A DNA stretch of 64,000 bases from Parcubacteria group bacterium GW2011_GWC1_36_108 (lineage in GTDB: Bacteria; Patescibacteriota; Minisyncoccia; Moranbacterales; GWC2-37-73): contig LBRD01000004.1 in NCBI GenBank assembly GCA_000991245.1, forward strand, positions 26,235-90,234, in the 5' to 3' direction. A model generated the notes under the pieces. That model was not told the DNA's origin and searched no databases. It saw only the letters and a list, made by a program, of their open reading frames with translations. The first letter of the stretch is position 1. Every line of letters begins with the position of its first letter. A program made the position numbers and the translations under genes. Positions 7,538 to 63,775 of this stretch are shown here, piece by piece.

Positions 7538-7564
7538 AATTTCCAATTTCCAATTTCCAATTTC
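7538..7564. repeat. 7-bp satellite (AATTTCC/TGGAAAT) x4, intergenic copy
   Basis: aatttccaatttccaatttccaatttc lies upstream of the RRM gene. The same heptamer arrays occur inside pyk (35479-35550) and the fem-like gene (42966-42995, 43270-43316). Confidence 0.7.
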
Positions 7565-7651
7565 TAATAAATTTTCAATGTTTTAATGACTTAATGTTTG
7601 AAAATTAATTAATTGTGAATTGATTGTAAATTGTGAATTGTAAATTGAAAA

Positions 7652-8344
7652 TTATTGCAAATATTTAGACGGGTCTATCCAATCATCCAATTGATTTTTA
7701 TTTTGCACATATCCTAAAATATTTATATTTGCTCCTTTGTGAATTCCTAGGTGTAGATGTTTGCGCTCCCCATCAGTCTCATTACTGAATCCTGTCCCCA
7801 AATTCGCCAAAAAATCTCCGGCTTTCATTTGATCCCCTATTTTAAACGTAATACTGGATAATTTAATATGACCATACACAACCGTGACAGCCTGACCATC
7901 AAGCTCGCAACTGGCAGCGGCAACTCCACCATATCCACTAGCAGTTCTTGCGGATAATAATTTTCCGTCGCACAAAGCTTTCACAGCCACATCAATATTT
8001 TGCTCCTCGATAGTTGCTTCCAAATCAACCGCGCTATGATATCCCGTAAAACGCTCCGGATTTACCGGTGAATTCTTTGGGTTCACATAAATTCCAAATG
8101 GTTTTTTTGTTATCCGCGAAAGCGCATTATCAAGCGGATCAATAGTTTCTTGTTTTTGATTATTATTTGCCGTATTTTTTTTGTTGTCAGTTGTCGGTTG
8201 TAAGTTGTTTGTTGCTTGTTGCGAGTTGTCAGTTGTTGATTGTGAGTTATTTATTGGTGCATTCGCTTTTTTCACATACAAAAAACCAGCAACAACAAAT
8301 ATTGCAATAGTTATAAACAAAAAAATATATGATTTATTTTTCAT
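7652..8344 (-). CDS. M23 family (LytM-type) peptidase, membrane anchored
   Basis: 230 aa with an N-terminal TM segment and a low-complexity N/Q/T linker. GYHSAVD and HLHLGIH are M23 metallopeptidase signatures. Confidence 0.8.
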   Translation of the reverse strand: MKNKSYIFLFITIAIFVVAGFLYVKKANAPINNSQSTTDNSQQATNNLQPTTDNKKNTANNNQKQETIDPLDNALSRITKKPFGIYVNPKNSPVNPERFTGYHSAVDLEATIEEQNIDVAVKALCDGKLLSARTASGYGGVAAASCELDGQAVTVVYGHIKLSSITFKIGDQMKAGDFLANLGTGFSNETDGERKHLHLGIHKGANINILGYVQNKNQLDDWIDPSKYLQ

Positions 8345-8421
8345 ATATCTTATTACGCTTTTAAAATATTTTTATTCGAAAGCATCAAAGACTTTTTTCC
8401 ACATTTCTTTTTCCGCAAAAA

Positions 8422-8572
8422 CTCTTTCTTGTTGTCATTCCCGTGAAAACGGGAATCCAGGACTAAGCCTGACTTGTGCGCGAACCTGGATCCCGGATCA
8501 AGTCCGGGACGACACTGCTGTGTCGATTTCTTAACGCTCATCACTTGTTTTTTGCCTACATACTTCATATGG
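8422..8572 (+). repeat. GC-rich ~155-bp structured repeat, copy A
   Basis: The element carries two hairpins, tgtcattcccgtgaaaacgggaatcc and ctggatcccggatcaagtccgggacgac, followed by gtgtcgatttcttaacgctcatcac. Copies B and C align to it by eye at about 85 percent. The 80-aa ORF 8353..8595 is its artefactual translation. Confidence 0.7.
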
Positions 8573-8614
8573 TGCAAATGAGATGCGGGATGCAAAAAAA
8601 GAGCAAGAGTGAGG

Positions 8615-8695
8615 ATGTTTCTTATTTTTTCACTAGAAACAAGTCACGCTAGCGTTATGTCAAAAGTTGCAATTGTTTCTCCGTGACAAAAATTA
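8615..8695 (+). repeat. palindromic repeat family 2, copy a
   Basis: Core is ttttttcact[ta][ag]aaacaagtc...gtcaaaagttgcaattgttt..gtgacaaaaa. Other copies are at 19425-19530 and 51601-51700. Confidence 0.6.
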
Positions 8696-8738
8696 AGAAC
8701 CTTTGAGCGACAAACTAGGCAGTAAAGGAAAAAAGGAA

Positions 8739-10013
8739 TTATTTCAAATTTTTAGCTGCCGATTCGCCGGCCAAATAGCCGGTTGACCAGCACATTTGAA
8801 GATTATATCCACCAGTTGGACCATCAACATCAATGATTTCCCCAGCAAAATAAAGATTTGGCACAATTTTTGAGCCCATGGTGCGAGAATCAATTTCCCT
8901 AGTGGAAACTCCTCCGCTAGTCACCATCGCCATTTCAAAACCAAAAAGACTATCAAAAGTAATCGACAAGTTTTTAACAAGATTCACCAAAATATGTCTT
9001 TCCTTTCTGCTTATTTTAGCTGCATGTTTTTCCATATCTAATCCAGAATATCTCAGCACAAAATCCAAAAGTTTCGGTGAAAAAACATCATGCAAACAAT
9101 TTGATAATTTCTTGTCAGCATTTCTTTCAAAATCAGTTAGGATAATTTCATCCAATTGCTCAAAATTAAGATATGGTTTTAAATCAAGAATAAATTTAAT
9201 ATCATCATCACTTTGGGAAACCAACTTGGCAATATTCCTGCTCATATTAAGTGCCAGCGGTCCAGAAAATCCATAATGAGTAAACATTAAGTCTCCCTCA
9301 TTAGAAAATTTCTTCTTGCCACCTTGATAAACAGTAATGGAAACACTGCCAGCACTAACTCCTTGAAGTTCTCCGACCCAATCTTCTTTAATTTTAATCG
9401 GCACCAAAACTGGCATCGGCTCAATAATTTTATGTCCCATTTTTGCTGCCCATTGGTAGCCATCGCCCATTGAACCAGTGGCGGGATATGATTTTCCGCC
9501 CACCGCAATAATCACATTTTTTGGAAAAAGTTCACGTTTTTTAAGTTTAATTTTTGAGATTTTGTTTTCGCCATCCAAAGAAAAATCAACGATGTGAGAT
9601 TTATATAAAAAAGTAATATTATTTTCCTTCAAAACATTTGTAAGTGCGCCAAGCACATCCTCAGCTCTATCGCTCAGTGGAAAAACTCGGCCATTTTTTT
9701 CAACTTTAGTAGGCACGCCATTTCCAGCAAAAAATTCCTGCACACTGCCAGGGCGAAAAGCATTGAAGGCTGAAAGCAAAAACCTACCGTTTTTGTATAG
9801 ATTTGAAAGCTCAACAACATTGTCTTGATCCTGTGTCAAATTGCAGCGACCATTTCCTGCCATTAAAAGTTTTTTTCCGGGCTCTTCTTTCTTGTCCACC
9901 AAGGCCACCCGCGCGCCTTTTTGCGCAGCGCGAATTGCAGCCATCATCCCAGAGGGACCAGCGCCAACAACCACGACATCAAATTGTTCTTCTATCAGTT
10001 TTTTTGAACTCAT
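8739..10013 (-). CDS. HI0933-family FAD-dependent flavoprotein (YhiN-like)
   Basis: 424 aa with the VVVVGAGPSGMMAA Rossmann dinucleotide motif. Length and C-terminal pattern are typical of the HI0933/aminoacetone oxidase-like family. Confidence 0.75.
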   Translation of the reverse strand: MSSKKLIEEQFDVVVVGAGPSGMMAAIRAAQKGARVALVDKKEEPGKKLLMAGNGRCNLTQDQDNVVELSNLYKNGRFLLSAFNAFRPGSVQEFFAGNGVPTKVEKNGRVFPLSDRAEDVLGALTNVLKENNITFLYKSHIVDFSLDGENKISKIKLKKRELFPKNVIIAVGGKSYPATGSMGDGYQWAAKMGHKIIEPMPVLVPIKIKEDWVGELQGVSAGSVSITVYQGGKKKFSNEGDLMFTHYGFSGPLALNMSRNIAKLVSQSDDDIKFILDLKPYLNFEQLDEIILTDFERNADKKLSNCLHDVFSPKLLDFVLRYSGLDMEKHAAKISRKERHILVNLVKNLSITFDSLFGFEMAMVTSGGVSTREIDSRTMGSKIVPNLYFAGEIIDVDGPTGGYNLQMCWSTGYLAGESAAKNLK

Positions 10014-10183
10014 ATTTATAGATATTTTTCACATTATTGATAAATTACATAATGACATACTTTTATTTACTTGTCCACCCTTGGTCTTTACTTTCCCAGA
10101 CTATTGTGTTATTCTTCGTTTTCATTAAAGCTGGTCCTGCTTTATGAACTTTATGAACTTTAAGGACTTTACAAACTTTTCTT

Positions 10184-11158
10184 ATGTTAATAGACGATAT
10201 TAAAATTGAAGTGGCTGCCGGAAATGGTGGCAAAGGCTGCGTGGCTTTCAACAAGAACTTGATGAGTCTTGGACCGGCTGGCGGAAGCGGAGGAAGAGGA
10301 GGATCTGTCATTTTTGTCGGTGTCTCCGACCTTAATGCGCTTGGACAATTTCGCTTCAGAAAGCAAGTCAACGCTGAAAACGGCCGGGAAGGCAAAGGTC
10401 AGTTTTGTGATGGACCAGATGCCAAGGATGAAATGATCAAAATTCCAGTTGGAACAGTTATCCATAACATCACCACTGGCATTGATCAGGAAATAACCAA
10501 GGTTGGACAAGAAATTTTGATTGCCAAAGGAGGACGAGGAGGAAGAGGAAATTTTCAATTTCGAGGATCCAGAAATACAACACCAAAAGAATTTGAAGAG
10601 GGAAAACCAGGAGAGGGCTTTGAATTGCGACTGGAACTTAAAATGATTGCAGACATCGGCTTTGTCGGACTTCCTAATCTTGGAAAATCATCTCTTCTCA
10701 ATGAACTTACCAATGCCAACGTAAAAGTTGCCAATTATCAATTCACCACGCTTGAGCCAAACCTTGGCGTGTATTATGGTCTTATTTTGGCTGACATTCC
10801 AGGACTAATTGAGGGAGCTTCAGATGGTAAAGGCTTGGGAATAAAATTTTTAAAACACGTCGAACGCACCAAAATTATTTTCCATTTTCTCGCTGCTGAC
10901 AGTGAGGATATTATGGCTGACTATAAAACTATTCGAGCCGAACTTAAAGCTTTCAATCCAGCTTTATTAGAAAAACCTGAATATATCCTAGTTTCCCGCT
11001 CTGATATGGTTGATGAAAAACAGCTTAAGAAAATTATTACCAGAGCCAAGAAGATCAACAAAAATGCTGCGCCTATTTCCATCCACAACTGGGATCAAAT
11101 CCAAAAAATCAAAGAAATCTTAAATAAAATGGACGAAGAAAAACAGAGTGGTAACTAG
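10184..11158 (+). CDS. obg: GTPase Obg/CgtA
   Basis: Gly-rich Obg fold N-terminus (GNGGKG, GGSGGRGGS, GGRGGRGN). The G domain has GLPNLGKSSL, DIPGLIEGAS and SRSD motifs. Confidence 0.85.
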   Translation: MLIDDIKIEVAAGNGGKGCVAFNKNLMSLGPAGGSGGRGGSVIFVGVSDLNALGQFRFRKQVNAENGREGKGQFCDGPDAKDEMIKIPVGTVIHNITTGIDQEITKVGQEILIAKGGRGGRGNFQFRGSRNTTPKEFEEGKPGEGFELRLELKMIADIGFVGLPNLGKSSLLNELTNANVKVANYQFTTLEPNLGVYYGLILADIPGLIEGASDGKGLGIKFLKHVERTKIIFHFLAADSEDIMADYKTIRAELKAFNPALLEKPEYILVSRSDMVDEKQLKKIITRAKKINKNAAPISIHNWDQIQKIKEILNKMDEEKQSGN

Positions 11159-11234
11159 CAACTAGTAATTGGTCACTAGCAAAACAAGAATTAAAAAAAT
11201 CCAAACGATCTGTTTGGATTTTTTTATTTTATTT

Positions 11235-11392
11235 ACGCACATTGCGAAGTGCGTAGGTAAAACACGAGTGATGAGCGTTAAGAAATCGACACGAAGTCGT
11301 GTCGTCCCGCACTTGATGCGGGATCCAGAAAGTCTCACGGATTAGTAAATAACCTGGATTCCCGTTTTCACGGGAATGACAAAGTTACGTTT
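11235..11392 (-). repeat. GC-rich ~155-bp structured repeat, copy B
   Basis: Its reverse complement aligns with copy A across both hairpins and the gcgttaagaaatcgac core. It adds a third terminal hairpin, acgcacattgcgaagtgcgt. Confidence 0.7.
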
Positions 11393-11450
11393 GCCCCAGC
11401 AACGAGCAGTGCAAAAAAATACAAAATAAAAAAATCTACCCTCGCTCAAA

Positions 11451-11819
11451 TTACTCTTGCTCGGATGAGGAATGATGATTTTTACTTGGTTCAAAAGAAT
11501 GCAAAATCGCATTGACCAAAGAAAGAATCAAGCTGAACAAAAGTGCCCACCAAAAACTTTGCACATAAAAACCATCAACGATATTGCTAGTGAGCATTAT
11601 CATCCCAGCATTAATAACAAGCGTAAAAAGTCCCAATGTCAAAATTGTTATTGGCAGAGTCAGAATGATTAAGATAGGTTTTAAAATAGTGTTAAAAAGT
11701 CCCAACACCACAGCCACAATCAATGCCACAAAAAAACTTTTAAGGACAATCCCCGGCAACAAATAAGCCGTAATCATAATTGCCAAAGCCCGCAAAAACC
11801 AATGGAGAATTATATGCAT
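11451..11819 (-). CDS. DUF360/phage-holin-4-like small membrane protein
   Basis: 122 aa with four hydrophobic helices, LPGIVLKSFFVALIVAVVLGLFNTILKPILIILTLPITILTLGLF. This pattern is typical of the YvlD/DUF360 family. Confidence 0.55.
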   Translation of the reverse strand: MHIILHWFLRALAIMITAYLLPGIVLKSFFVALIVAVVLGLFNTILKPILIILTLPITILTLGLFTLVINAGMIMLTSNIVDGFYVQSFWWALLFSLILSLVNAILHSFEPSKNHHSSSEQE

Positions 11820-11977
11820 AAATTTTTTATTTTATAATTATACATTTAGTATAGCATAATCACATATTTCTGCGTGAGTAATCAGTCAATGGTCATCAGT
11901 CATCAAGATTCAGCAAACGCAATGCCATCACGATTACTGATGACAGATTACCGATGACTCGTCATTTATTTCTCCAG

Positions 11978-12958
11978 TTATTTTATGCTATTGAAATAAT
12001 TTTTGATAATCTTTTCCACTTCCCCACTATTTTCCGTTTCCATCAACTTTGCGCGGAGTTCTTTGGCACCGTCAAATCCTGAAACATAGGCCTTAAAATG
12101 CTTTTTCATCACGTGATAACCTTTAATATTTTGGCTTGAAAGTTCTTTTTCAAAAAGTTTGCTATGCTCAATCATCACTGCAAATCTTTCTTTAAGCGGG
12201 ATGTTTTCGATTTTTATTTCTTTATTAAAAAACCAAGGATTGCCAAAAATTCCGCGGCCAACCATCACACCATCAACCTTCGACTGCTCAGCTTTTTTGT
12301 TTCCATCTTCCAAGCTTTCAACATCGCCATTACCAATAATCAAAACGCCGCTTCCACTGGCAATTTCCTTGGCGCGAGCAATCACGTCCCAATGCGCAGG
12401 AACTTCTGACATTTCTTTTTTTGTGCGTCCGTGGATTGTAATTACGGCTGGTTTTTCTGCCAAAATTTCAGGCAGCCAAGTCTCAATTTCATTTTTTGAA
12501 AATCCAATACGCGTTTTCACTGATACCGGCATTTCTCCTGCGCCGTCTTTGGCTGCGCGAATAATCTCGCGAGCAAGTTTTGGATTTTTCATCAGTGCTG
12601 ACCCTGCACCTTGTTTGATAATTGCTTTGTCAGGGCACCCCATATTAATATCGACACCATCAAAACCAAGCTTTTTCACTAATTGCGCAGCTTTTTTGAT
12701 ATTTTCGGGATTTGCTCCAAAAATTTGGGCCACAATTGGATGTTCGTTTTTATTAAAACGTAAATCCTTGATCAAAACTTCTCGTCCTTTTTCGCTAGCA
12801 AGTCCATCAGCACTGACAAATTCAGTATAAAGAACATCTGGTTTGCCATATTTAACAAGCATCTGCCTCTCAGCAATGTCAGTAACGTCAGCCATCGGTG
12901 CCAACACAAAAAACGGTTTCTTCAATTTTTCCCAAAAATTCTTTTTCATATCTAACAA
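11978..12958 (-). CDS. dus: tRNA-dihydrouridine synthase
   Basis: 326 aa. LAPMADVTD and DGVDINMGCP are Dus FMN-binding and active-site motifs. Confidence 0.85.
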   Translation of the reverse strand: MLDMKKNFWEKLKKPFFVLAPMADVTDIAERQMLVKYGKPDVLYTEFVSADGLASEKGREVLIKDLRFNKNEHPIVAQIFGANPENIKKAAQLVKKLGFDGVDINMGCPDKAIIKQGAGSALMKNPKLAREIIRAAKDGAGEMPVSVKTRIGFSKNEIETWLPEILAEKPAVITIHGRTKKEMSEVPAHWDVIARAKEIASGSGVLIIGNGDVESLEDGNKKAEQSKVDGVMVGRGIFGNPWFFNKEIKIENIPLKERFAVMIEHSKLFEKELSSQNIKGYHVMKKHFKAYVSGFDGAKELRAKLMETENSGEVEKIIKNYFNSIK

Positions 12959-13026
12959 GAATAATCTACTTTCACTTATATTTCAAGCTCTTGTGTTTCA
13001 TATACTTTTTTTGATTTATTCCTTCT

Positions 13027-13173
13027 ATGCATTGCGAAGTGCGTAGGCAAAAGACGAGTGATGAGCGTTAAGAAATCGACATAGCAATGTCGTCCCGGAC
13101 AGTAGATCCGGGATCCAGGACCAAAAAAGATGTGCGTGCCAAATCCTGGATTCCCGCCTACGCGGGAATGACA
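13027..13173 (-). repeat. GC-rich ~155-bp structured repeat, copy C
   Basis: Same orientation as copy B and all three hairpins are present. ORF 12976..13230 is its artefactual translation. Confidence 0.7.
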
Positions 13174-13311
13174 AAATATATTCATCTCAACAACAAGCAC
13201 GTGTGAAAAAAGAAAATAAAAAGCCAGCACACAGCTGACTTTTTATTATTTTTCGTATTCCCCTACTCCGCCAGCTGGCGGACTAATTCCTAATACCTAC
13301 AACCTGACCCC

Positions 13312-13686: not shown

Positions 13687-13914
13687 AAATATTAACTCAC
13701 GACTTACAACTTACAACTTACAACATTTTTATTTTTTGTTGTCAGTTGTTTGTTGTCGGTTGTTTGTTGTTTGTTATTAGTTAGTTCTACAACGTTTTTC
13801 CATCATAACATATTTTAAAAAAACAAAAAAGGTGTCGCTAATTACAAGCGCACACCAATTTTTTTGTTTTGTTTTTGTTTTTATTTTTACTTCTCTATTT
13901 AAATTACCAATTTT

Positions 13915-18133: not shown

Positions 18134-18147
18134 AAAAATCTTTGAAT

Positions 18148-18260
18148 TTTTTGTTTGCCTGTTTTCTTTTTGGCCAATTATTGCGATAGCAATTCTTTGA
18201 GTTCTTGACCATAGTCTTGGGTCAAGAACGTGCTCAAAAAGGAAACAGGCAAACAAAAAA
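18148..18260 (+). repeat. palindromic repeat family 3, copy a
   Basis: Outer 19-bp stem gtttgcctgttttcttttt/aaaaaggaaacaggcaaac encloses the inner palindromes ttgcgatagcaa and ttgaccatagtcttgggtcaa. It is about 90 percent identical to 57520-57640. Confidence 0.65.
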
Positions 18261-19382: not shown

Positions 19383-19424
19383 ATTTTAAATAATTTTCAA
19401 CGTCTTAATCTTTGAATAAGGAGC

Positions 19425-19530
19425 GAGCGAAAATACTTTTTCTTTTTTCACTTAAAACAAGTCTCTTTGGTGTTATGTCAAAAGTTGCAATTGTTTTTCT
19501 GTGACAAAAAGAAAAAGGTATTTTGAGCAA
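19425..19530 (+). repeat. palindromic repeat family 2, copy b
   Basis: ctttttcttttttcacttaaaacaagtctc...gtcaaaagttgcaattgtttttctgtgacaaaaagaaaaagg with imperfect terminal inverted repeats. Confidence 0.6.
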
Positions 19531-19637: not shown

Positions 19638-19841
19638 TTAGTTGATTTTTGAAACGTTGATTGCGTTTGGTCCTTTTGGGCTTTCGCTTACTTCGAACTC
19701 AACCTTGTCACCTTCTTGCAATTCGTTGAATTCAGCATTCTGAAGTTCTTTTGCATGAAAGAAAAGATCCTTATCACTTCCTTCTTGAGAAATGAATCCG
19801 AATCCTCGGTCTGTCAAACGTTTGATTGTTCCTTGGTTCAT
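19638..19841 (-). CDS. cspA: cold-shock protein (CSD)
   Basis: 67 aa. GFGFI and LFFH are the RNP motifs of cold-shock domain proteins. There is a ~140-nt 5' leader. Confidence 0.85.
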   Translation of the reverse strand: MNQGTIKRLTDRGFGFISQEGSDKDLFFHAKELQNAEFNELQEGDKVEFEVSESPKGPNAINVSKIN

Positions 19842-19979
19842 TGTGTTGTTTGATAGTTTTAGTTAAATGCACGTTTGGGCTGCGCCTATTAAAGCTCGAC
19901 TAGGCTATTGCGAAGTACCTACTATTGCCTTTTAATGATAGCATTTCTTGAGCAAAAAGTCAATAGACAGCGATATTCC

Positions 19980-21431: not shown

Positions 21432-21442
21432 ATTTTTGATTC

Positions 21443-21480
21443 TAGTTTCTAGGTTCTAGGTTTTAGGTTTTAGTTTTTTT
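21443..21480. repeat. TAGGTTYTAGG direct repeats upstream of the ABC-F start
   Basis: tctagtttctaggttctaggttttaggttttag is related to the 63724-63775 array and to the 45-bp minisatellite at 59216-59400. Confidence 0.55.
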
Positions 21481-34376: not shown

Positions 34377-35843
34377 CTAGATTTCCTTAATCCCTACCAA
34401 TTGAATATGTTCCCCATCTGGAGTTCGGCCTAAGATCAAAACAACTTTGTCTCCGGTTGCAAGCACACCATTTTTCTTGGCATCTTCGATGAGCCAATCA
34501 ATATCTTCTCGAAAAACTTCTCCTCGCTCATAAAATTTTGCATTAATTCCCCAAACTAAAGAAAGTTGATGATATGTTTTTTTGTTATGAGTCACAACCA
34601 GCATTGGTTGCTCTGGACGAAAATGCGAAAAAAGTCGCGCCGTAAAACCACTAGCCGATCCGAGCACGACAGCTTTAGCATTGCTGCTTTTGGCAAGTTC
34701 ATATGCACTCTTAATAACTTTTTTAAAATCCCCTTCTCCATTTAAAGTGAGCAAGTGTGTCACGTCATCAAAAGGAGAAGCCTCGGTGTTTTCAATAATA
34801 TCCTTCATCGTGCGAACACTTTCCACTGGATATTTTCCAGAAGCACTTTCCCCAGAAAGCATCACGGCATCAGCATGATCAACAACCGCATTGGTCACAT
34901 CAGAAACTTCAGCTCGTGTTGGACGCGGATTTACAATCATCGAATCAAGCATCTGAGTTGCGACAATCACCGGCTTCATTGCTTGCAAACTTTTCTTTAC
35001 AATTTCTTTTTGCAAAATTGCAACTTTTGTTCCTTCAATTTCAATACCAAGATCACCGCGCGCTACCATAATAGCGTCAGTATGCTCAATGATATCATCC
35101 AAATTTTTTATCGCTTCTTTGCGTTCAATTTTAGCAATAATTTGTGGCAGGTTATCTTCACGTCCAAGAATATTTTTCATCTTGTCTCGCAAAGTTTCAA
35201 TGTTAGCACCAGTGGAAACAAATGACATCGCCACAAAATCAACATCCTGCGAAAGCACGAAAACTAAATCTTTTTCATCCTTTTCTGTGATCGGACTGAT
35301 TTGCAATTTTGCATCAGGAATATTAACACCTTTATGATTTTTCACTGTTCCGCCATCAATAACTTCGCAAAGCAAAACTCCTTCATTTTTTTCCTTAACA
35401 ACAATTTTCATCAGCCCATCCTCAATCAAAATTTCATTCCCCACTTCCACATCATCAATAATTTTTTCAACATCGAGTGAAAATTTTCTGTCATTTGAAA
35501 TTTGATCATTTGAAATTGATTGGAAATTAGAAATTGGAAATTGGAAATTAGGCGCATAAAAAATATCACTGACCAACACAAATTCTCCTGGTTTCATTTC
35601 CACGTTTTCCACAACCACCGTCCTTATTCTCGGTCCTTGCAGATCAGCCAAAATTCCAACAGCCGTGTCCAATTCTTGTGACAATTCTCGAATAATTTTA
35701 ATCACATTTCCATGCCATTCGTGCGAGCCATGAGAAAAATTAAGTCTGGCCACATTCATGCCATTTTCAACCATTTGTTTCAAAACTTCTTTACTATCAG
35801 AAACCAATCCAAGAGTTGCCACTATTTTTGTCTTCTTTGTCAT
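34377..35843 (-). CDS. pyk: pyruvate kinase, carrying an in-frame heptamer-repeat insertion
   Basis: TKIVATLG, NFSHG and MVARGDLG motifs. The insert APNFQFPISNFQSISNDQISN is encoded by the TGGAAAT-type satellite at 35479-35550. Confidence 0.9.
   Translation of the reverse strand: MTKKTKIVATLGLVSDSKEVLKQMVENGMNVARLNFSHGSHEWHGNVIKIIRELSQELDTAVGILADLQGPRIRTVVVENVEMKPGEFVLVSDIFYAPNFQFPISNFQSISNDQISNDRKFSLDVEKIIDDVEVGNEILIEDGLMKIVVKEKNEGVLLCEVIDGGTVKNHKGVNIPDAKLQISPITEKDEKDLVFVLSQDVDFVAMSFVSTGANIETLRDKMKNILGREDNLPQIIAKIERKEAIKNLDDIIEHTDAIMVARGDLGIEIEGTKVAILQKEIVKKSLQAMKPVIVATQMLDSMIVNPRPTRAEVSDVTNAVVDHADAVMLSGESASGKYPVESVRTMKDIIENTEASPFDDVTHLLTLNGEGDFKKVIKSAYELAKSSNAKAVVLGSASGFTARLFSHFRPEQPMLVVTHNKKTYHQLSLVWGINAKFYERGEVFREDIDWLIEDAKKNGVLATGDKVVLILGRTPDGEHIQLVGIKEI
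35479..35550. repeat. degenerate 7-bp satellite inside pyk
   Basis: tgaaaatt..ttgaaatt..ttgaaatt..tggaaattagaaattggaaattggaaatt. It is in-frame and translated as FQFPISN. Confidence 0.7.
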
Positions 35844-42361: not shown

Positions 42362-42472
42362 ATATTAATAATTTTAAATTTTAAGTTTTAAATTTTAAAT
42401 GAATTTTTAATTATTTAATTTAAAATTTAGACATTTAGATTTGATTTAAAATTTTAAATTTAAAACTTAAAA

Positions 42473-43483
42473 TTATTTCTTGAATTTTACTGCAAAAGCC
42501 TTCGCTCTCTGCAGTCCTCGATAAACCGCATATTTCCTAGGGTTAATAATAATATCATAACTCCCAGGAAATTCAATGGATTTAGTATTCGGTGAAAAAC
42601 CCAGTTTGAAATTAGTGATTCCCTCCCAACTGTTATCACTATTAACGGTTTTAATACCTCCAAAATCGTAACGCGTGCAGCCTCTTTCTTTGGCTTCTAA
42701 AATCGCCTGCCATTGCAATAAAAATGGTGCCATCACATTTCTATTATCATTTGACGATGCCCCGTGCAAATATGTCGCAGTGTTTTCAAAAAACAAAACC
42801 AGATTTGCTGCAATTATTTTCCCTTCAAACTCAGCCACATAAATCTTGAGCATTTCCTCCGGCAAAGTCTCAATCATTTTTCGATAATATTCTTCTGGAT
42901 GCGCCACAATTCCCTGCCTCGCCGCCATTTCCTTTGTGAGTTTAAGAAAAATTTCTACATATTGATTGGAAATTGGAAATTGGAAATTGGAAATTGCTCG
43001 CACTAAAACATTATGTTTTATTGCGAGTTTTATATTATATCGTGTTTTAGGTTTCATTTCATTCAACAAAGTTTCCACGTCTTTTGAAATATCCAACACA
43101 AAAACTTCTTTCGGTTGCATATTGTGTGGAGCTTTAACAACTTTTTCTGAAATATTTTCTTTTATCATTTCCAACATCTGATCACTTTCCGGTTCAACCC
43201 TAATCCAACCAGCATTTTCTTTTTTTCCCAATTCAATCAACCCCCACATCCCATTTTTAATTTTGTCATTTGGATTTTGGATTTCATTGGAAATTGGAAA
43301 TTGGAAATTGGAAATTACAGGCCCTCTAGGACTGTAAAAATATTTCCCCACAATCGGCAAAACATGCTCAATAATACTCGCTGAAAATGCGTCATTTTCA
43401 ACAAAATGTGTTTTTCTCCCAACAGCTTCCTGAAACTTTCGCCATTGCTGCGATTGTAGAATTTCTTTATTTTCCATACCCAA
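42473..43483 (-). CDS. FemAB-family peptidyltransferase with two in-frame heptamer-repeat insertions
   Basis: YLHGASSNDNRNVMAPFLLQWQAILEAKERGCTRYDFGG is the Fem/GNAT-like C-domain. Two ISNFQFPISN inserts are encoded by satellites at 42966-42995 and 43270-43316. Confidence 0.7.
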   Translation of the reverse strand: MGMENKEILQSQQWRKFQEAVGRKTHFVENDAFSASIIEHVLPIVGKYFYSPRGPVISNFQFPISNEIQNPNDKIKNGMWGLIELGKKENAGWIRVEPESDQMLEMIKENISEKVVKAPHNMQPKEVFVLDISKDVETLLNEMKPKTRYNIKLAIKHNVLVRAISNFQFPISNQYVEIFLKLTKEMAARQGIVAHPEEYYRKMIETLPEEMLKIYVAEFEGKIIAANLVLFFENTATYLHGASSNDNRNVMAPFLLQWQAILEAKERGCTRYDFGGIKTVNSDNSWEGITNFKLGFSPNTKSIEFPGSYDIIINPRKYAVYRGLQRAKAFAVKFKK

Positions 43484-44837: not shown

Positions 44838-44900
44838 CCTTTTCTAAATAATTTTAAATTTTAAATTTAAAATTTAAAATGAATTTTTAATTGATAAATT

Positions 44901-47285
44901 TTAAATTATCAAACACGCGGTACACCCACCACCACAGTCTTTGCCTGTTTCATTTCCATTTTGAATACCATCCGAGCAAGTCGGAGTTACCACTACTGGC
45001 TCTTGTTCTGGTTCCGGCTCTGGCTCGGGCTCTTCTTTCGGTTTGAAATATTCTTCTTTGCATTCCAAAGTTGGAATAGGATCAAGATCTTTGTTCTTTT
45101 TCTTGTCTTTTTTAAACCAATCTTGCACACCCTTTTCCCAATTTTTATATTGAGAATCATCGGATGGATCTTTTGGATAATCTCCTCGTGGATCATCTTT
45201 TTTCACATAAAATAAAATACTGTGAACTTCCCCGAATGTTTTTTTGTCTGAAGTTCCATCAGGACAAGAATCATTTGCCAAGCAATAATCTCCTTTGTAA
45301 TCCTTGGCATCCATTTCGCACACCTTTACATCTTCTTTAATGTCTTGTTCTCCATTGAGAATTGGTTTGCCGGCATCTTCTTTTTCATATTTTGGAAATT
45401 GTTCAGCCGCACTGTTTCCCAATGCAAAATTCATAAACGATCTCCAAATCGGAGCAGCCACATAAATTCCATCAGCACCGACTTTCATAGAGGAGTTGTC
45501 ATTGTTTCCAGCCCAAACCCCCACTGCAATTGACGGCGTGTACCCCATTGCCCAACCATCGCGAAATTCATTGGTTGTTCCAGTCTTGGCCGCAACTTGG
45601 CGATCTGAAAATTTGAAAGGATTATTGTCTCCAAACACAGGTGCTCTGAGTTCATTGGTCGACATAATATAATCAAGCATAGCAACATATTTTTCTTCAA
45701 CAATTCTTTGCCCAGCGCTTTGTTTGAATTCTTCCAAAACCGCTCCGTCCTTATCTTGAATTTTCAAAATTGCAGTTTTGTCATAGTGAATTCCTCCTGT
45801 GGCCAAACCACCATACGCATTAACGTGATCAAGTAATGTCACTTCTCCACCTCCGAGTACCAAAGACAAACCGTATCGTTCAGGTTGATTGAGACCTTTT
45901 ATTCCAAGCCCTTTTGCAAGTTGAATTGAATCTTTCACTCCTGCCAAATACAAAGTTTTCACAGCAGGAATGTTGAGCGACATAGCCAATGCATTTTTCA
46001 TTTGAAGCGGTCCTTTGAATTTTCCATCATAATTTTGCGGCTTGTAATCTTTTCCTTCATCGGTACTAAAGTTTGTTGCCACATCATATAATAATGTTTC
46101 TGGGGTGTAACCTTTCGTAAAAGCTGTCAGATAAACATATGGTTTAAATGAAGACCCCGGTTGACGATCAGCCAAAGCCACGTTAACTTGCCCATCAATT
46201 GATTTGTCAAAATAATTTTTCGAGCCAACCATCGCCAAAATTTGTCCAGTTTTTGGATCCATTGCTACCAACGCTGCATTGCTGGCATTTTGAGCTTTGT
46301 TTTTTTCAGCTCCTTCTACGACTGCTTTTTCTGCTGCCTTCTGTTTGTCCCAATCAAGCGTAGTATAAACTTTTAGTCCTCCTTGCTCTACCGCCTGTTC
46401 TCCATATTTCTGTTCCAAATATTCTTTTACATACATCACAAAATGAGGAGCTTGAATATTATCTTGTTTTGGAGTTATTGCTGCAAAGATATCCACGCCT
46501 TTAGCTTCGTCTGCCTGCTCTTGCGTGATATATCCCAAATCAGCCATTTTTCTAAGTGCAGAATTTTTTCTTCCAACTAAAGCATCCCGATGAGAACCAA
46601 AAGGCGAATAATACGTTGGCGCGTTTGGCAGTGAAGCCAAAAGAACAGCCTCAGCAAGATTTAAATCCTTTGCTGATTTTGAAAAAAATGTTTGAGCTGC
46701 CGCTTCAATCCCATAGGCACTTGAACCATACGGAATTTGATTAAGATACATTGCTAAGATTTCATCTTTGGAATATTTTTGCTCCAATTCTATAGCAAGA
46801 ATAACTTCTTTTATTTTTCGCGTGAATGTTTTCTCGTCACTAAGCAATGATTTTTTAATAAACTGCTGTGTAATCGTGCTACCACCTTGTGCAGCCCCAC
46901 CTTTTATAATATCTTTAAAAGCTGATCGCAAAATAGCTTTCGGGTTTACTCCGAAATGCGAATAAAATTCCTGATCTTCCAAAGCAATAGTCGCATACTT
47001 CACATTATCCGGAATTTGCGCAAAAGGTATAACTGTTCTTTTCTCCTCCCCGTGTACATCATACAAAAGATGCTCACCGGAGCGATCGTAAATTTTGGTT
47101 GATTGCGCAATCAGTTTTGCATCCACCGAATTTGCACTCGGCAAATCCTTGGCAAAATACAAAAAGATTCCAACTACACTTAAAAATCCAACACCAAAAA
47201 GATACAGGGAAATTTTCCCTACAATTTTCCATTTATCTTTATTGGAAGAACTTTTAAAATTTCTTGAAATAAATATTTGATTCAT
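44901..47285 (-). CDS. class A penicillin-binding protein (glycosyltransferase+transpeptidase) with a PE-repeat linker and Cys-rich tail
   Basis: GT51 motifs (EDQEFYSHFGV, GGSTITQQ) and the transpeptidase SxxK/SxN-type blocks. The C-terminus is EPEPEPEPEQEP followed by CSDGIQNGNETGKDCGGGCTAC. Confidence 0.85.
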   Translation of the reverse strand: MNQIFISRNFKSSSNKDKWKIVGKISLYLFGVGFLSVVGIFLYFAKDLPSANSVDAKLIAQSTKIYDRSGEHLLYDVHGEEKRTVIPFAQIPDNVKYATIALEDQEFYSHFGVNPKAILRSAFKDIIKGGAAQGGSTITQQFIKKSLLSDEKTFTRKIKEVILAIELEQKYSKDEILAMYLNQIPYGSSAYGIEAAAQTFFSKSAKDLNLAEAVLLASLPNAPTYYSPFGSHRDALVGRKNSALRKMADLGYITQEQADEAKGVDIFAAITPKQDNIQAPHFVMYVKEYLEQKYGEQAVEQGGLKVYTTLDWDKQKAAEKAVVEGAEKNKAQNASNAALVAMDPKTGQILAMVGSKNYFDKSIDGQVNVALADRQPGSSFKPYVYLTAFTKGYTPETLLYDVATNFSTDEGKDYKPQNYDGKFKGPLQMKNALAMSLNIPAVKTLYLAGVKDSIQLAKGLGIKGLNQPERYGLSLVLGGGEVTLLDHVNAYGGLATGGIHYDKTAILKIQDKDGAVLEEFKQSAGQRIVEEKYVAMLDYIMSTNELRAPVFGDNNPFKFSDRQVAAKTGTTNEFRDGWAMGYTPSIAVGVWAGNNDNSSMKVGADGIYVAAPIWRSFMNFALGNSAAEQFPKYEKEDAGKPILNGEQDIKEDVKVCEMDAKDYKGDYCLANDSCPDGTSDKKTFGEVHSILFYVKKDDPRGDYPKDPSDDSQYKNWEKGVQDWFKKDKKKNKDLDPIPTLECKEEYFKPKEEPEPEPEPEQEPVVVTPTCSDGIQNGNETGKDCGGGCTACLII

Positions 47286-50775: not shown

Positions 50776-50865
50776 TGTCATTCCGGACTCGATCCGGAAT
50801 CCCGAGCTTTAACGCACAAACCGTTATGCTACGAGAGATCCTGAAACAAATTCAGGATGACACAG
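50776..50865 (+). repeat. divergent GC-rich hairpin element related to copies A-C
   Basis: tgtcattccggactcgatccggaatcc hairpin plus atcctgaaacaaattcaggat hairpin. The ends TGTCATTCC and GGATGACACA form inverted termini. Confidence 0.5.
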
Positions 50866-51534: not shown

Positions 51535-51600
51535 AGAGCATGTAACATATAACATGCAACATTAACTCAAAACAATAAGATTACAAATCAAAAAAACGAA

Positions 51601-51700
51601 CTAGAATGCTTTTTCTTTTTTCACTTAAAACAAGTCTCATTGGCGCTGGGTCAAAAGTTGCAATTGTTTTTCTGTGAAAAAAGAAAAATGTATTCTAGTG
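51601..51700 (+). repeat. palindromic repeat family 2, copy c
   Basis: ctagaatgctttttcttttttcacttaaaacaagtctc...gtcaaaagttgcaattgtttttctgtgaaaaaagaaaaatgtattctag with clear terminal inverted repeats. Confidence 0.6.
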
Positions 51701-51721: not shown

Positions 51722-52267
51722 TCAACAATTATTTTTAATTTCTCTCATTTTTCTGCTATTTAAATGACATAGTGCTATTGCAATTGCATCAGCGGTGTCA
51801 TCTGGTTTGGGAATCTCTTTCAATTTCAAAATATTCTTTACCATTAGCTGTATTTGCTTCTTTTCTGCCCTACCGTAACCAGTCAAGGCTTGTTTGACTT
51901 GCAGCGGTGTGTATTCAAATATGCTAACACAAAATCTCTCAAGTGTCAAGAGTATAGACCCTCGAGCTTGGCTTACTTTCATTACCGTTTTTACATTCTT
52001 AAAAAAGAACAAATCTTCCACTGCAGCCTCATCAGGCTTATATTTTTCAATTATTTGTTCTAAATCCTTCACAACTTCAAAAAGGCGTTCGGCTGTGCTG
52101 TTTTTTGGTGAAGTTGTGATGTGCCCATAAGCAATTGATGTCACACATCCTTTCTTTTCATCCAAAATAGCCCAGCCAACAATAGCAGTCCCAGGATCAA
52201 CCCCTAAAACTCTTAGAGTTTTAGGGGAATTTTTAATTTTTAATTTTGAATTTTTAATCAATTCCAA
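51722..52267 (-). CDS. ruvC: crossover junction endodeoxyribonuclease RuvC
   Basis: LGVDPGTAIVGWAIL, AAVEDLFF and ADAIAIALCH match RuvC catalytic blocks. The start codon is uncertain. The ORF opens with TTG in AT-rich sequence. Confidence 0.8.
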   Translation of the reverse strand: MELIKNSKLKIKNSPKTLRVLGVDPGTAIVGWAILDEKKGCVTSIAYGHITTSPKNSTAERLFEVVKDLEQIIEKYKPDEAAVEDLFFFKNVKTVMKVSQARGSILLTLERFCVSIFEYTPLQVKQALTGYGRAEKKQIQLMVKNILKLKEIPKPDDTADAIAIALCHLNSRKMREIKNNC

Positions 52268-52355
52268 ATGATTAAATTTTTAATGTTTTAAACATTTTGA
52301 AATTAAGATTTGATTTTAAATTTCAAATTTTAAATTTCAAATTAATCTATGATAA

Positions 52356-57519: not shown

Positions 57520-57640
57520 CTTTGTTTTTTTGTTTGCTTGTTTTCTTTTTGGCCAATTATTGCGACAGCAATTCTTTGAGTTTTTGACCATAGTCTTGGG
57601 TCAAAAACGTGCTCAAAAAGAAAACAAGCAAACAAAAAAA
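57520..57640 (+). repeat. palindromic repeat family 3, copy b
   Basis: gtttgcttgttttctttttggccaattattgcgacagcaattctttgagtttttgaccatagtcttgggtcaaaaacgtgctcaaaaagaaaacaagcaaac. Confidence 0.65.
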
Positions 57641-59212: not shown

Positions 59213-59215
59213 ATT

Positions 59216-59400
59216 TTGTATTTTGTATTTCCCTACAACCTAATTCCTAAAACCTATAATTTGTATTTTGTATTTACCTACAACCTAATTCCTAAAACCT
59301 ATAATTTGTATTTTGTATTTACCTACAACCTAATTCCTAAAACCTATAATTTTGTATTTTTGTATTTCCCTACGACCTAATTCCTAGAACCTAAAACCTG
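59216..59400. repeat. 45-bp minisatellite x4
   Basis: Unit is ttgtattttgtatttacctacaacctaattcctaaaacctataat. Units are contiguous with no spacers, and the array abuts the pilB stop codon. Confidence 0.8.
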
Positions 59401-59402
59401 CC

Positions 59403-62400
59403 CTATATTACTCTTTCCACCTCCTCTAAACTTGTTTCTCCTTCGAGAACTTTGAGCATTCCGTCTTGTTCCATTGAAATCATTCCGTTTTCAATGGCTT
59501 TGTCGCGGATTTGGGAAGATGAAGCACTTTGAGTGATGAGTTCTTCAATATCGCGATCAACCACTAGCACTTCGCTGATTGTTGTGCGGCCCTTGTATCC
59601 AATATTGTTGCATTTATCACAACCCTTGGCTTCATAAACTTTTTCAAAAGATGGGACTGCGATTCCAGATTTTTCAGAAACATTTCCCAATATTTTTTTC
59701 ATTTTTGAAATCTCACTTATAGTCAAATGCCTTTCAGTTTTGCAATCACAGAGCTTGCGCACGAGTCTTTGTGCCATTAGCGCGTTAACGGCTGTTGCAA
59801 GGTCATCTGAGCGCACTCCCATATTAATCAAACGCTGAACTCCGCCTGCTGCATCATTTGTGTGAAGCGTGGAAAGAATTGAATGTCCTGTAAGAGCGGC
59901 TTGAATGGCAATGTTGGCCGTTTCCTCGTCGCGAATTTCGCCAATCATCATAATGTCAGGATTTTGACGAAGAAGTGCCCGCAGCGCTGTTGGGAAAGTA
60001 TACCCTTCTTTGTCATCAACCGAGGTCTGCAAAACTCCATCCAATTGATATTCAATCGGATCTTCAACTGTGATGATTTTCACTTCGGGATTATTAAGAA
60101 CTTTCAGCGCGCTATACAATGTCGTGGTTTTTCCGCTGCCGGTTGGACCAGTTGTCAAAAAGACACCGTTTGGCTTTTTAATTTCACTAATAATTTTTTC
60201 CAAATTTTGCTTTCTAATCCCCAACTTTTCCAAATCAAGAGCAACCGATGATTTGTTTAAAAGTCTCATTACCACAGTTTCGCCATAGCCACCCAGAATT
60301 ATCGAAACACGCACATCAACTTTTGTGTCTGTGATATTTCCAAATGGTTTGTCTAAAGAAATTGAAAAACGAGAATCCATAACACCGCCGCGCACCTCCG
60401 TTGAAAAGCCACTCAAAAATTTGATGCTGCCCAATAAGCTTGGATATTCATTAAGAGGAATTTCTGCAATCGTTTGAAGAATTCCATCCATACGATAACG
60501 AATTTTCACGCTTTTTTCTTCCGGTTCAATGTGAATATCTCCCACATTAAGCAGTAAGCTGCTAGCAAAAATATATTTAGCACTGCTTTTTTGATTTGAT
60601 TTTTCAATTAGGTTTCTGAGTGATTCCACTGGCTCTAAGTTTTGTGAAACCAAAAGCATATCCTCCTCGGTAATATCGATTGCTCGAGACATTGATTGTG
60701 ACATCAATTTTTCATAAATTTCCTCCAGAAATTCAGTTTGTCCTGTTGCGCGCCAAACTTCTTCCATTGAAGTCAGCCCTTCAATAGCTTTTAGAATTCC
60801 GTCTTGCGCCATTGTGATCATTCCGTCTTCCAAAGCAGTTTGTGCAATTTCTCTTTCTCCTCCCATTTCCAAAATTAACTTTTCAATATTCTCAGAAATT
60901 GTGAGCACCTCAAAAATTCCGATTCGCCCCTTAAATCCTAGTCCATGACATTTGTCGCAACCGACAGGACGATACAATTTTTCAATAGTCTTGGGAATTT
61001 CAAGTTTTGCCTTAGGAGAAATAATCGACAAGATTTTTTTAACACTGTCAGAAGTTTCTCGCGCTGGAACATATTCTTCTTTGCAATGTTGGCAAAGCTT
61101 TCGCACAAGACGTTGTGCAATAAAACAATTTACTGATGGTGCAATTAAATTGGGTTTAACACCAAGTTCAATAAAGCGTGGGATGGAAGCAGGTGCATTG
61201 TTGGTGTGCAGTGTGGAAAGCACAAGATGTCCAGTGAGTGCCGCATTAACTGAAATGTCTGCCGTTTCATCATCACGAATTTCGCCAACCAAAATAACAT
61301 CAGGATCTTGACGCACCACTGCGCGAAGGCCTTCTGCAAATGTATAGTTGCGATCCTTGGCAACTTGTGTTTGAGAAATGTTTTTTACTTCATATTCAAT
61401 TGGGTCTTCAATCGTGATAATCTTAACTCCCGCAACATTAAGCTTGTTTACCAAGGCATACAGTGTGGTGGTTTTTCCGGATCCCGTTGGCCCTGTTGTT
61501 AAAATCATTCCGTGAGGTTTGGCAATTTCTCTTTGCACATTTTCATATGCCAAGCCGCGCAAACCCAAATCCTCAACCGAAAGTAAAATATCAGCTTGAC
61601 TCAAAAGCCTCATTACCACCGATTCTCCGTGACTTCCTGGGATAATATTTGTTCTGACATTTATTTTTCCATTTTCCATATCAATGGAAAAATGACCGTC
61701 TTGCGCAATGTCGCGAATATTTATTTTCATTTTTCCCATCATCTTAATGCGGGACAAAATGAAATGATATGTGTCATTTGGAAATCTTCCAACATCTTGC
61801 AAAATTCCATCAATACGAAAACGCATTCTGACCTCTTCTTCTTGCGGTTCAAAGTGAATATCACTGGCCTTCATTTTCACGGCGCCAGCCATAATAATTG
61901 AAATGATTTGAGTGGTTGGAATTTCACGAATACGCTTTTTCAAATCAAGCATACTGCCAAATTCTTTCTCAAATTTTTCCAAATCCTCCCCACTAAGCGT
62001 GATTTGCATAGCTTCCAAATTCTCCAAAAGCGGAATGTCCGCATATCTTTTCCAGATTTTTTCCAAAGAAGAATTTGAAATCACATACAAATGAATCGTC
62101 CAACCATTTTCGTTTTTAAGACTTTCAATGTGATCAAGAGTTTTTTTGTTTGCTGGATCAATAATACCCATTCGTAATTCCTTGCCAGCTTTTTGAAAAA
62201 CGCAAATTTGAAATTCGCGCGAGTTTTCCTCGCTGATTGTGCGCATATCCTCTGCGCCCACAGGAAAAATATTTAGATCGACATAAGAAAGATCATATTC
62301 GCTCGCCAACTGTGCTGCTCGTTCTTCTTCAGACTCTCCTCGCATATGCTGAAGAAGCTTGCCCGCCTGCTCATCCTTGTCAGTATTATGAATCAATTGT

Positions 62401-62420
62401 TTATGCGAAACTTTTACCAT
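59403..62420 (-). CDS. pilB: tandem-fused type II/IV secretion (PilB/GspE-family) ATPase, two complete ATPase modules in one 1005-aa polypeptide
   Basis: There are two Walker A motifs (both TGPTGSGKTTTLY). There are two Asp and His boxes (GEIRDDETADISVNAALTGHLVLSTLHTN and GEIRDEETANIAIQAALTGHSILSTLHTN). There are two tetracysteine motifs (CQHCK...GCDKCHGLG and CDCK...GCDKCNNIG). An N-terminal T2SSE_N-like domain is present. The two halves are ~50 percent identical by eye. Confidence 0.85.
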   Translation of the reverse strand: MVKVSHKQLIHNTDKDEQAGKLLQHMRGESEEERAAQLASEYDLSYVDLNIFPVGAEDMRTISEENSREFQICVFQKAGKELRMGIIDPANKKTLDHIESLKNENGWTIHLYVISNSSLEKIWKRYADIPLLENLEAMQITLSGEDLEKFEKEFGSMLDLKKRIREIPTTQIISIIMAGAVKMKASDIHFEPQEEEVRMRFRIDGILQDVGRFPNDTYHFILSRIKMMGKMKINIRDIAQDGHFSIDMENGKINVRTNIIPGSHGESVVMRLLSQADILLSVEDLGLRGLAYENVQREIAKPHGMILTTGPTGSGKTTTLYALVNKLNVAGVKIITIEDPIEYEVKNISQTQVAKDRNYTFAEGLRAVVRQDPDVILVGEIRDDETADISVNAALTGHLVLSTLHTNNAPASIPRFIELGVKPNLIAPSVNCFIAQRLVRKLCQHCKEEYVPARETSDSVKKILSIISPKAKLEIPKTIEKLYRPVGCDKCHGLGFKGRIGIFEVLTISENIEKLILEMGGEREIAQTALEDGMITMAQDGILKAIEGLTSMEEVWRATGQTEFLEEIYEKLMSQSMSRAIDITEEDMLLVSQNLEPVESLRNLIEKSNQKSSAKYIFASSLLLNVGDIHIEPEEKSVKIRYRMDGILQTIAEIPLNEYPSLLGSIKFLSGFSTEVRGGVMDSRFSISLDKPFGNITDTKVDVRVSIILGGYGETVVMRLLNKSSVALDLEKLGIRKQNLEKIISEIKKPNGVFLTTGPTGSGKTTTLYSALKVLNNPEVKIITVEDPIEYQLDGVLQTSVDDKEGYTFPTALRALLRQNPDIMMIGEIRDEETANIAIQAALTGHSILSTLHTNDAAGGVQRLINMGVRSDDLATAVNALMAQRLVRKLCDCKTERHLTISEISKMKKILGNVSEKSGIAVPSFEKVYEAKGCDKCNNIGYKGRTTISEVLVVDRDIEELITQSASSSQIRDKAIENGMISMEQDGMLKVLEGETSLEEVERVI

Positions 62421-63718: not shown

Positions 63719-63723
63719 ATCGT

Positions 63724-63775
63724 TTCAGGTTTTAGGTTCTAGGTTTTAGGTGATAGGTTCTAGATTTTAGGTTTA
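63724..63775. repeat. TAGGTTYTAGG direct repeats upstream of the nrnA-like start
   Basis: caggttttaggttctaggttttaggtgataggttctagattttagg, followed by an AACTTTATR 9-mer array at 63790-63835. Confidence 0.55.

Follow-up and report, generated by a model that had tools for sequence, protein, structure and literature searches.

Nested palindromic repeats between the genes of a Candidatus Moranbacteria genome, probably a selfish mosaic of REPIN/NIME-like type

Three full copies and a lone hairpin doublet

The DNA analysed here, which we call the window, is a 64-kb stretch of contig LBRD01000004.1 from Parcubacteria group bacterium GW2011_GWC1_36_108; in-genome counts and open reading frame (ORF) searches cover this stretch alone. 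It carries three full copies of a hairpin-rich repeat (copies 1, 2 and 3) and, further along, a lone hairpin doublet at 50776-50865. All are intergenic, and the neighbours of the full copies encode an M23 peptidase, an HI0933-like flavoprotein, Obg, a holin_4_2 membrane protein, Dus and a hypothetical protein. Over the 78% of the query that aligns, the window's Obg shows 100% identity to a partial entry from Candidatus Moranbacteria bacterium GW2011_GWC2_37_73 (Rifle groundwater). Loci from relatives and other assemblies are given L numbers, the syntenic ones having been fetched through Obg homologues; Obg identity to the window is 96% for L014 (a sister species), 92% for L016, 91% for L018 and 88% for L020. 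Because the sequences of copies 1-3 recur unchanged in independent assemblies from several samples (L008-L013), they are not an assembly artefact. The repeat family is real, structured and partly mobile.

A sequence-only reading of this DNA had proposed three homologous copies of a GC-rich repeat of about 155 bp, and alignment confirms both their existence and their approximate positions, with homology running further out than it had supposed, to 8393-8597 (plus strand), 11216-11436 (minus) and 13028-13210 (minus). Pairwise identity is 74-80% over 138-142 nt, lower than the 85% or so it had judged by eye. The copies do stand out by composition (48-51% GC in a window of 36.7%), and the conserved core that it had picked out proves to be a 23-nt sequence, GTCGATTTCTTAACGCTCATCAC, identical in all three, where 0.01 matches would be expected by chance. 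It was also right that the copies lie between genes and generate spurious ORFs, since gene calls of 71-84 aa have been placed on them in public assemblies. The repeat is non-coding, because a 2-nt indel breaks the sole shared ORF. A small ORF starting MSVKK on the reverse strand of the core was considered and rejected: its frame is shifted between copies by a 2-nt indel, and the L014 version has a stop after 6 codons.

Each full copy is predicted to fold into four helices in series, followed by the unpaired core, at -47 to -50 kcal/mol (z from -3.2 to -4.4). Hairpin 1 is ATTCCCG-N6-CGGGAAT, or alternatively ATTCCC-N8-GGGAAT; a CCAGG/CCTGG helix encloses a variable spacer of 23-30 nt that differs from copy to copy; hairpin 2 is TCCCGGA-N5-7-TCCGGGA; and hairpin 3 is CGACAC-N4-6-GTGTCG followed by ATTTCTT. 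Of the three common stem-loops in the earlier inventory, the third (acgcac..gtgcgt) occurs in copy 2 only, and two shared helices, the CCAGG/CCTGG pairing around the spacer and the CGACAC hairpin, had been missed. The hairpin 1 difference that it cited as compensatory lies in the loop; true compensations convert G-C to C-G in hairpin 2 of copy 2 and C-G to T-A in the CGACAC hairpin of copy 3. Its broader claim, that the pattern favours selection on structure, fits the genuine covariation in the unit stem and the arm stem, described below.

Copy 1 begins with the left arm TTTTTTCCACATTTCTTTTTCCGCAAAAAC and ends with the right arm GCCTACATACTTCATATGGTGCA and a heptamer-like tail; its arms are of a type ('alpha') that recurs in L006/L007 and L001 in unrelated contexts. 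Its first hairpin unit, TGTCAT-ATTCCCGTGAAAACGGGAAT-CCAGG (8433-8461, plus strand), recognised by covariance model (33.4 bits) and fold, holds the exact consensus of the neisserial repeat dRS3 at 8437-8456; the second, CCTGG-ATCCCGGATCAAGTCCGGGAC-GACA (8485-8515, minus strand; 48.4 bits and fold), is inverted relative to the first across the variable spacer (8462-8484). The third hairpin, CGACAC-TGCT-GTGTCG (8510-8525, plus strand), which ATTTCTT follows, comes from the fold and a terminator-like pattern, and the core, predicted unpaired, occupies 8522-8544 on the plus strand. Copies 2 and 3, whose parts all lie on the minus strand, have 'beta' arms and are orthologues of elements L014-b and L014-c, respectively. 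In copy 2 an outer AT-rich stem (11413-11436 paired with 11216-11235) surrounds the left arm GCACTGCTCGTTGCTGGGGCAAACG (11388-11412), the hairpin units (11353-11382 and 11299-11329), the third hairpin (11287-11304), the core (11268-11290) and the right arm CCTACGCACTTCGCAATGTGCG (11236-11257). Copy 3 comprises a left arm (13176-13205), hairpin units (13145-13174 and 13087-13119), a third hairpin of sequence CGACAT-TGCT-ATGTCG (13077-13092), the core (13058-13080) and a right arm that reaches about 13028. The loop of hairpin 1 in copy 3 (GCGTAGGC; 13150-13169) is complementary over 8 nt to a conserved right-arm segment (GCCTACGC; 13040-13050), which alters the predicted minimum-energy fold of this copy; the complementarity may be coincidence.

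Outside the repeat, a bidirectional intrinsic terminator common to the convergent Obg and holin-like genes (11192-11226) adjoins copy 2. The intrinsic terminator of an upstream 124-aa gene (13215-13247, minus strand) lies directly 5' of copy 3, and a dus promoter-like site (12958-12986) lies 3' of it. This setting bears on the idea that the elements have been taken over as terminators, insulators or mRNA-stabilising stem-loops between transcription units. A simple scan flags the CGACAC hairpin and its ATTTCTT as terminator-like in 3/3 copies, the predicted folds are very stable, and every copy sits between genes, all as such a role would have it. However, copies 2 and 3 are already flanked by strong canonical terminators, copy 1 faces against both of its neighbouring genes, and the CGACAC hairpin is missing from the plain-type elements of L014 and L016, so that we consider the role very improbable.

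One further member proposed by the sequence-only reading, a 'solo end' near 19905, has not survived. It matches the repeat at 13 of 16 bases, a match of which about 0.5 instances are estimated to occur by chance in the window, and it is recovered neither by an 18-mer search allowing up to 3 mismatches nor by a hidden Markov model (HMM) of the right arm. The motif in question, ACTTCGCAAT, lies in the leader of a cold-shock protein gene (19640-19840, minus strand).

A hairpin unit that inserts independently

Hairpins 1 and 2 are inverted copies of a single unit of about 30 nt, GTCAT-ATTCCC-N8-GGGAAT-CCAGG. Across an alignment of 15 such units from the window and its relatives, the 8-bp stem is paired in 100% of 117 cells, 4/8 stem pairs show double-sided changes, and the observed covariation score was reached by 0/500 shuffles. 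A covariance model of the unit finds exactly 8 in the window, namely the doublets of copies 1-3 and the lone doublet, with everything else at 13 bits or below. Exact matches to ATTCCC-N8-GGGAAT number three, one in each full copy, against 0.08 expected; where the same covarying hairpin forms the second unit of a doublet, and in both units of the lone doublet, its stem is a variant (TCCCGG, TCCGGA, CCTGAA).

The doublet behaves as an independent insertion, both between genes and in frame within ORFs. The lone doublet, which the sequence-only reading had listed as a shorter relative, is real and consists of the doublet only: TGTCAT-hairpin-...-hairpin-ATGACA, with inverted termini (TGTCAT...ATGACA), identified by covariance model and fold. 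It sits between a 7TM_transglut stop codon and an ATP-grasp start codon. In L028 the orthologous junction is only 8 nt, TAGTACAATCAATG, and where this empty counterpart reads TAGTACAATCAATG, the filled site reads TAATCACTG, then the element, then TAATTTTTTTATG. Within the HI0933-like flavoprotein gene, L020 has a 72-nt doublet in frame that adds about 24 aa, and L018 has a single unit at the same place that adds about 18 aa and encodes ...LDSRLRGND...; both insertions are missing from six orthologues. The HI0933-like gene of L014 contains a further in-frame palindromic insert of 36 nt (about 9270-9310 of that locus; CCCCAGTGAAAT...ATTTCACGGGG, encoding PSEIVASQISRG). Its position in the gene is a different one, and small palindromes have therefore entered this ORF more than once.

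Used as a 33-nt query, the unit finds multi-copy sequences of Neisseria gonorrhoeae (at least 40 places per record), Azospirillum, Legionella, Photobacterium, Cupriavidus and others, and one Neisseria locus has the same doublet layout with the same GTCAT and CCAGG flanks. In Neisseria, pairs of dRS3 flank variable RS segments to form neisserial intergenic mosaic elements (NIMEs), whose positions are syntenic and whose content is dynamic; recombinase-driven phage integration into dRS3 has been reported, and NIME arrays were stated not to have been seen outside this genus (PMC1797815). The NIME unit is the target of an IS110/Piv-type phage recombinase, and binding of the hairpins by a site-specific recombinase was proposed for the neisserial NIME arrays and shown for Nf prophage integration. 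The Moranbacteria hairpin fits the 20-bp consensus ATTCCC-N8-GGGAAT and its GTCAT and CCAGG flanks, its two inverted units surround a short, variable spacer of lower GC (23-30 nt here, 19-214 bp for the RS of NIMEs), and the intergenic regions are likewise mosaics that keep a syntenic position between genomes (the window and L014) while their content changes. At the same time, the host is not Neisseria but a bacterium of the candidate phyla radiation (CPR) with 37% GC; there are 8 units in 64 kb and no long arrays, whereas Neisseria has hundreds per genome, often in long arrays; the second unit has the variant form ATCCCGG..CCGGGAC; three Moranbacteria copies enclose the doublet within a further palindromic element; and no associated phage recombinase is seen here.

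The long-hairpin element, its sites and other repeats of the window

The second palindromic element is a long hairpin of 130-220 bp, with imperfect terminal inverted repeats of about 28 nt and the invariant core ATTTCTTAACGCTCATCAC, and it is inside this element that the doublet is nested. L014 carries it at all three orthologous intergenic sites. The left arm there, TTTTGCACnTGCTTGTTGCTGGGGCAAA, is the same as in the window, as are the core and right arm (ATTTCTTAACGCTCATCAyTCGTCTTTTGCCTACGCACTTCGCAAyG), but the middle (GACTTCGCTCTTCGCTAAAATTTACACTTCGC...) is unrelated to the window's and has no hairpin doublet; dRS3-type units are absent from the whole 21 kb of L014. At the site of copy 1 the L014 element is inverted and has another arm type, with alignment restricted to the flanking genes. 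L016 also has plain-type elements. More distant relatives show empty sites: the dus-upstream site of copy 3 is element-free in L018 and L020, where the gap is 89-91 nt, and the Obg-holin site of copy 2 is empty in L020. Filled and empty sites differ too much in their flanks for an alignment to yield exact boundaries or a target duplication. The sites are conserved, and their middles are specific to each genome; the long-hairpin element is older than the doublet nested within it.

In five plain copies, RNAalifold pairs the arms over 26 positions, 11 of them with double-sided changes, and one pair appears as GC, CG, AU and UA. Left-right arm duplexes of these five copies and copy 2 reach -38 to -60 kcal/mol (z -3.6 to -7.2), the value for copy 2 being -49 kcal/mol (z = -4.1). 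The structures of the hairpins and of the arm stem are conserved. The outermost AT-rich stem is copy-specific yet self-complementary, with, for example, 22 perfect pairs in L014-c. Smaller hairpins accompany some copies: one of about 20 nt, CCTGCCTACCGGCAGGCAGG, lies within or beside the left arm in L006 (810-830), L001 (175-195) and L005 (about 400-420), and another of 20 nt, GCCTACGTCTGCTGACGGGC, occurs in L014-a and L014-b and is missing from L014-c.

The sequence-only reading had suggested looking for further members with a covariance model, and further members were found in other genomes. The right-arm HMM, run over 233 kb of Moranbacteria DNA, returned the known copies and one partial at a contig start (L023). 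A scan of public collections with the exact 20-nt core gave 4 genome loci and 3 metagenome loci; exact core matches outside the window come from a Moraniibacteriota metagenome-assembled genome, an uncultured 'Kiruna' bin, the contigs of which break at the repeat, and three metagenome contigs, none of these loci being syntenic with the window. Since the exact pattern misses plain-type relatives, the family is larger than exact-core scans suggest. A viral scan with the core produced a single, unrelated hit, and blastn with the plain element found no match in plasmid and phage collections.

An arm stem of this kind could also belong to a structured small or cis-acting RNA family, in which the closing stem would expose the invariant, unpaired 19-23 nt of the core to act as a seed or to bind a protein, and the doublet would be an insertion that a variable region tolerates. 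All copies from at least 5 genomes have the core unchanged or nearly so, it is predicted to be unpaired, the closing stem covaries, elements are kept at orthologous sites in the window, L014 and L016, about 12/16 copies are co-oriented with neighbouring genes, and a strong terminator follows the copies at the Obg-holin site. Yet sister genomes have wholly different middles, relatives at 88-91% Obg identity lack the element, copy 1 and other alpha-type copies are antisense to their neighbours, and a consensus scan finds no promoter-like site inside or just upstream of any copy. Nor is either strand favoured, because the exceptions in the arm stem are balanced between three G-U and three A-C. 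With Rfam 15 only two tRNAs in the window pass the gathering thresholds, and permissive scans of both element types (E-values up to 10) give best scores of 26-31 bits against gathering scores of 47-66; the repeat matches no known RNA family. Neither the promoter scan nor Rfam thus spoke for the multi-copy small RNA that the sequence-only reading had offered as a candidate, and we retain a functional RNA as an unlikely alternative.

Several more specific identities were rejected. A hammerhead-like motif on the reverse strand of the core (GUGAUGAGCGUUAAGAAAUC) has helices that misfit and nothing in Rfam. The tRNA-like, Y-RNA and 6S readings prompted by the cloverleaf fold of the doublet are without Rfam support, and copy number and swapped middles argue against them. 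An integron attC is contradicted by the lack of an RYYYAAC/GTTRRRY pair and by mixed copy orientations.

The comparison of sites bears equally on a proposal modelled on Neisseria, in which the dRS3-type hairpins would be recombination or integration targets, bound by a site-specific recombinase and acting as hot spots that exchange intergenic cassettes and adjacent genes. Unit and doublet are of the same kind as dRS3, for which syntenic positions with dynamic content and an integrating phage recombinase are on record (PMC1797815). Sister genomes differ in what they carry at the same three sites, with inversion and replacement at that of copy 1, and extra genes are inserted beside sites in L016, L018, L022 and L023. 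We nonetheless find the proposal rather unlikely: the fetched sequences show no recombinase, none of the units was found to adjoin a prophage or cassette, and L014 shows the same site conservation while lacking dRS3-type units in its 21 kb.

Other repeats share the window. A third family (D5), of about 92 nt with its own inverted termini of about 25 nt, has copies at 8606-8697, 19424-19515 and 51597-51688 (78-87% identity); two lie about 40 nt upstream of a minus-strand gene start and the third adjoins copy 1, and the family is absent from all relatives' loci, the orthologous RuvC/7TM junction included. A fourth palindromic repeat, of about 112 nt with a 29-nt terminal inverted repeat, occurs at 18147-18260 and 57526-57639 (95% identity), its two copies differing by a compensatory C>T / G>A change in that terminal repeat. 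Many intergenic regions contain short tandem arrays with a period of 7 or, in some cases, 9 (AATTTCC, GTTGTCA, ATTGGAA and GTTTTAG, for example), at positions such as 7538-7568, 8183-8248, 13735-13775, 21440-21478, 35493-35549, 42370-42474, 42965-42996, 43286-43316, 44850-44907, 52228-52343 and 63722-63774; relatives have comparable arrays, and such arrays come after the alpha-type right arm of the element. Finally, a 45-nt tandem repeat (59215-59393; 3.9 copies, 95% identity) adjoins the 3' end of a 1005-aa gene (59403-62420, minus strand).

Known repeat classes and the probable nature of the family

Likenesses to other bacterial repeats are partial. As in REPIN/RAYT systems, with their IS200/IS605-like Y1 transposases, a short palindromic unit with a conserved flanking motif occurs as inverted doublets and as singlets, its stem is kept by compensatory change, and no target-site duplication is visible; unlike them, the family has low copy number, its conserved flank is TGTCAT and not a GTAG-type motif, and no RAYT gene was found among about 50 window ORFs or the genes of relatives' loci. 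The insertions in L020 and L018 recall Rickettsia palindromic elements (RPEs), in that a conserved housekeeping protein has taken up a palindrome in frame and tolerates the additional peptide loop. These insertions, however, are in relatives and in no window gene, and are much shorter than RPEs; the likeness is one of behaviour, and we claim no sequence relationship. The long-hairpin element resembles ERIC/IRU, BOX and Correia-type repeats as a modular, intergenic imperfect palindrome of 130-220 bp with internal insertion variants, whose presence at orthologous sites varies; it differs in having no sequence similarity in plasmid or phage collections, in an outermost stem that is copy-specific yet self-complementary, and in showing no TA or other target-site duplication that we could identify.

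The sequence-only reading had suggested a miniature inverted-repeat transposable element (MITE), and there is something to this, in that the doublet behaves as a mobile insertion, and both the doublet (TGTCAT...ATGACA) and the long-hairpin element (arms of about 28 nt) have the terminal inverted repeats of a classical, DDE-derived MITE. The 155-bp unit as a whole, however, is not one MITE. A target-site duplication, which that reading had proposed seeking at the copy boundaries, is not visible at two filled-versus-empty comparisons, and no parent transposase was found. No insertion sequence with matching termini is present in the window, and no IS110/Piv-type recombinase gene was found in the window or the fetched loci. 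An rve integrase in L025 was considered as the parent element and rejected, its ends being unrelated.

Taken together, we favour, with a probability of roughly 0.6, a REPIN/NIME-like selfish mosaic: two nested palindromic elements, non-coding and reshuffled by recombination, in a Candidatus Moranbacteria genome. The doublet would most probably have been moved in trans by a hairpin-recognising recombinase encoded elsewhere, for which RAYT/IS200-type Y1 or IS110/Piv-type enzymes are candidates. Copies within a genome may then have been reshuffled and homogenised by recombination between shared arms, and this would account for the genome-specific middles at shared sites. In transcripts the elements may form stable stem-loops and a weak terminator-like hairpin.

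Several observations weigh against this interpretation. Among about 50 window ORFs there is no Pfam-detectable transposase or recombinase, Y1_Tnp included, and the called genes of ten distinct relatives' loci (about 160 kb) have none on record except the unrelated rve integrase of L025. The insertion of the lone doublet, set against the empty site of L028, has no clear flanking direct repeat, and the target-site duplication at the in-gene insertion of L020 is ambiguous, at most AGG. Copy number is low, in that the 64 kb contain 8 units, arranged as 4 doublets and never as arrays, and the three window copies of the long-hairpin element are clustered within 5 kb. The arm duplex of copies 1 and 3 is no better than that of shuffled sequence. 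The core is far more conserved than the adjoining intergenic DNA and most copies are co-oriented with the flanking genes, either of which would fit a functional RNA or a protein-binding site.

A bolder possibility, which we hold to be a long shot, is that the dRS3-type hairpin (GTCAT-ATTCCC-N8-GGGAAT-CCAGG) is a single ancient recognition module, shared from Proteobacteria to CPR and served by one conserved recombinase class, and that the Moranbacteria long-hairpin element, with its invariant unpaired core, is not inert selfish DNA but a functional RNA or DNA partner of this system, for instance an RNA acting as a guide or bridge, or a scaffold for protein binding. In the selfish mosaic that we prefer, the repeats are of a known kind, now in a host group for which we found no earlier report; a brief literature search found no description of REP, NIME or MITE-type repeats in CPR/Patescibacteria, which is weak negative evidence.

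The genomes of CPR/Patescibacteria are small and streamlined. Those studied here carry several nested palindromic repeat families, which remodel intergenic regions, give rise to spurious ORF calls in public annotation and even lengthen housekeeping enzymes by peptide loops. The hairpin unit is nearly identical to neisserial dRS3 and to multi-copy sequences of Azospirillum, Legionella and others; this suggests that recognition works by one mechanism in different phyla, and the unit provides a concrete query sequence for searches. A model of the element would, in addition, improve both gene calling and assembly.

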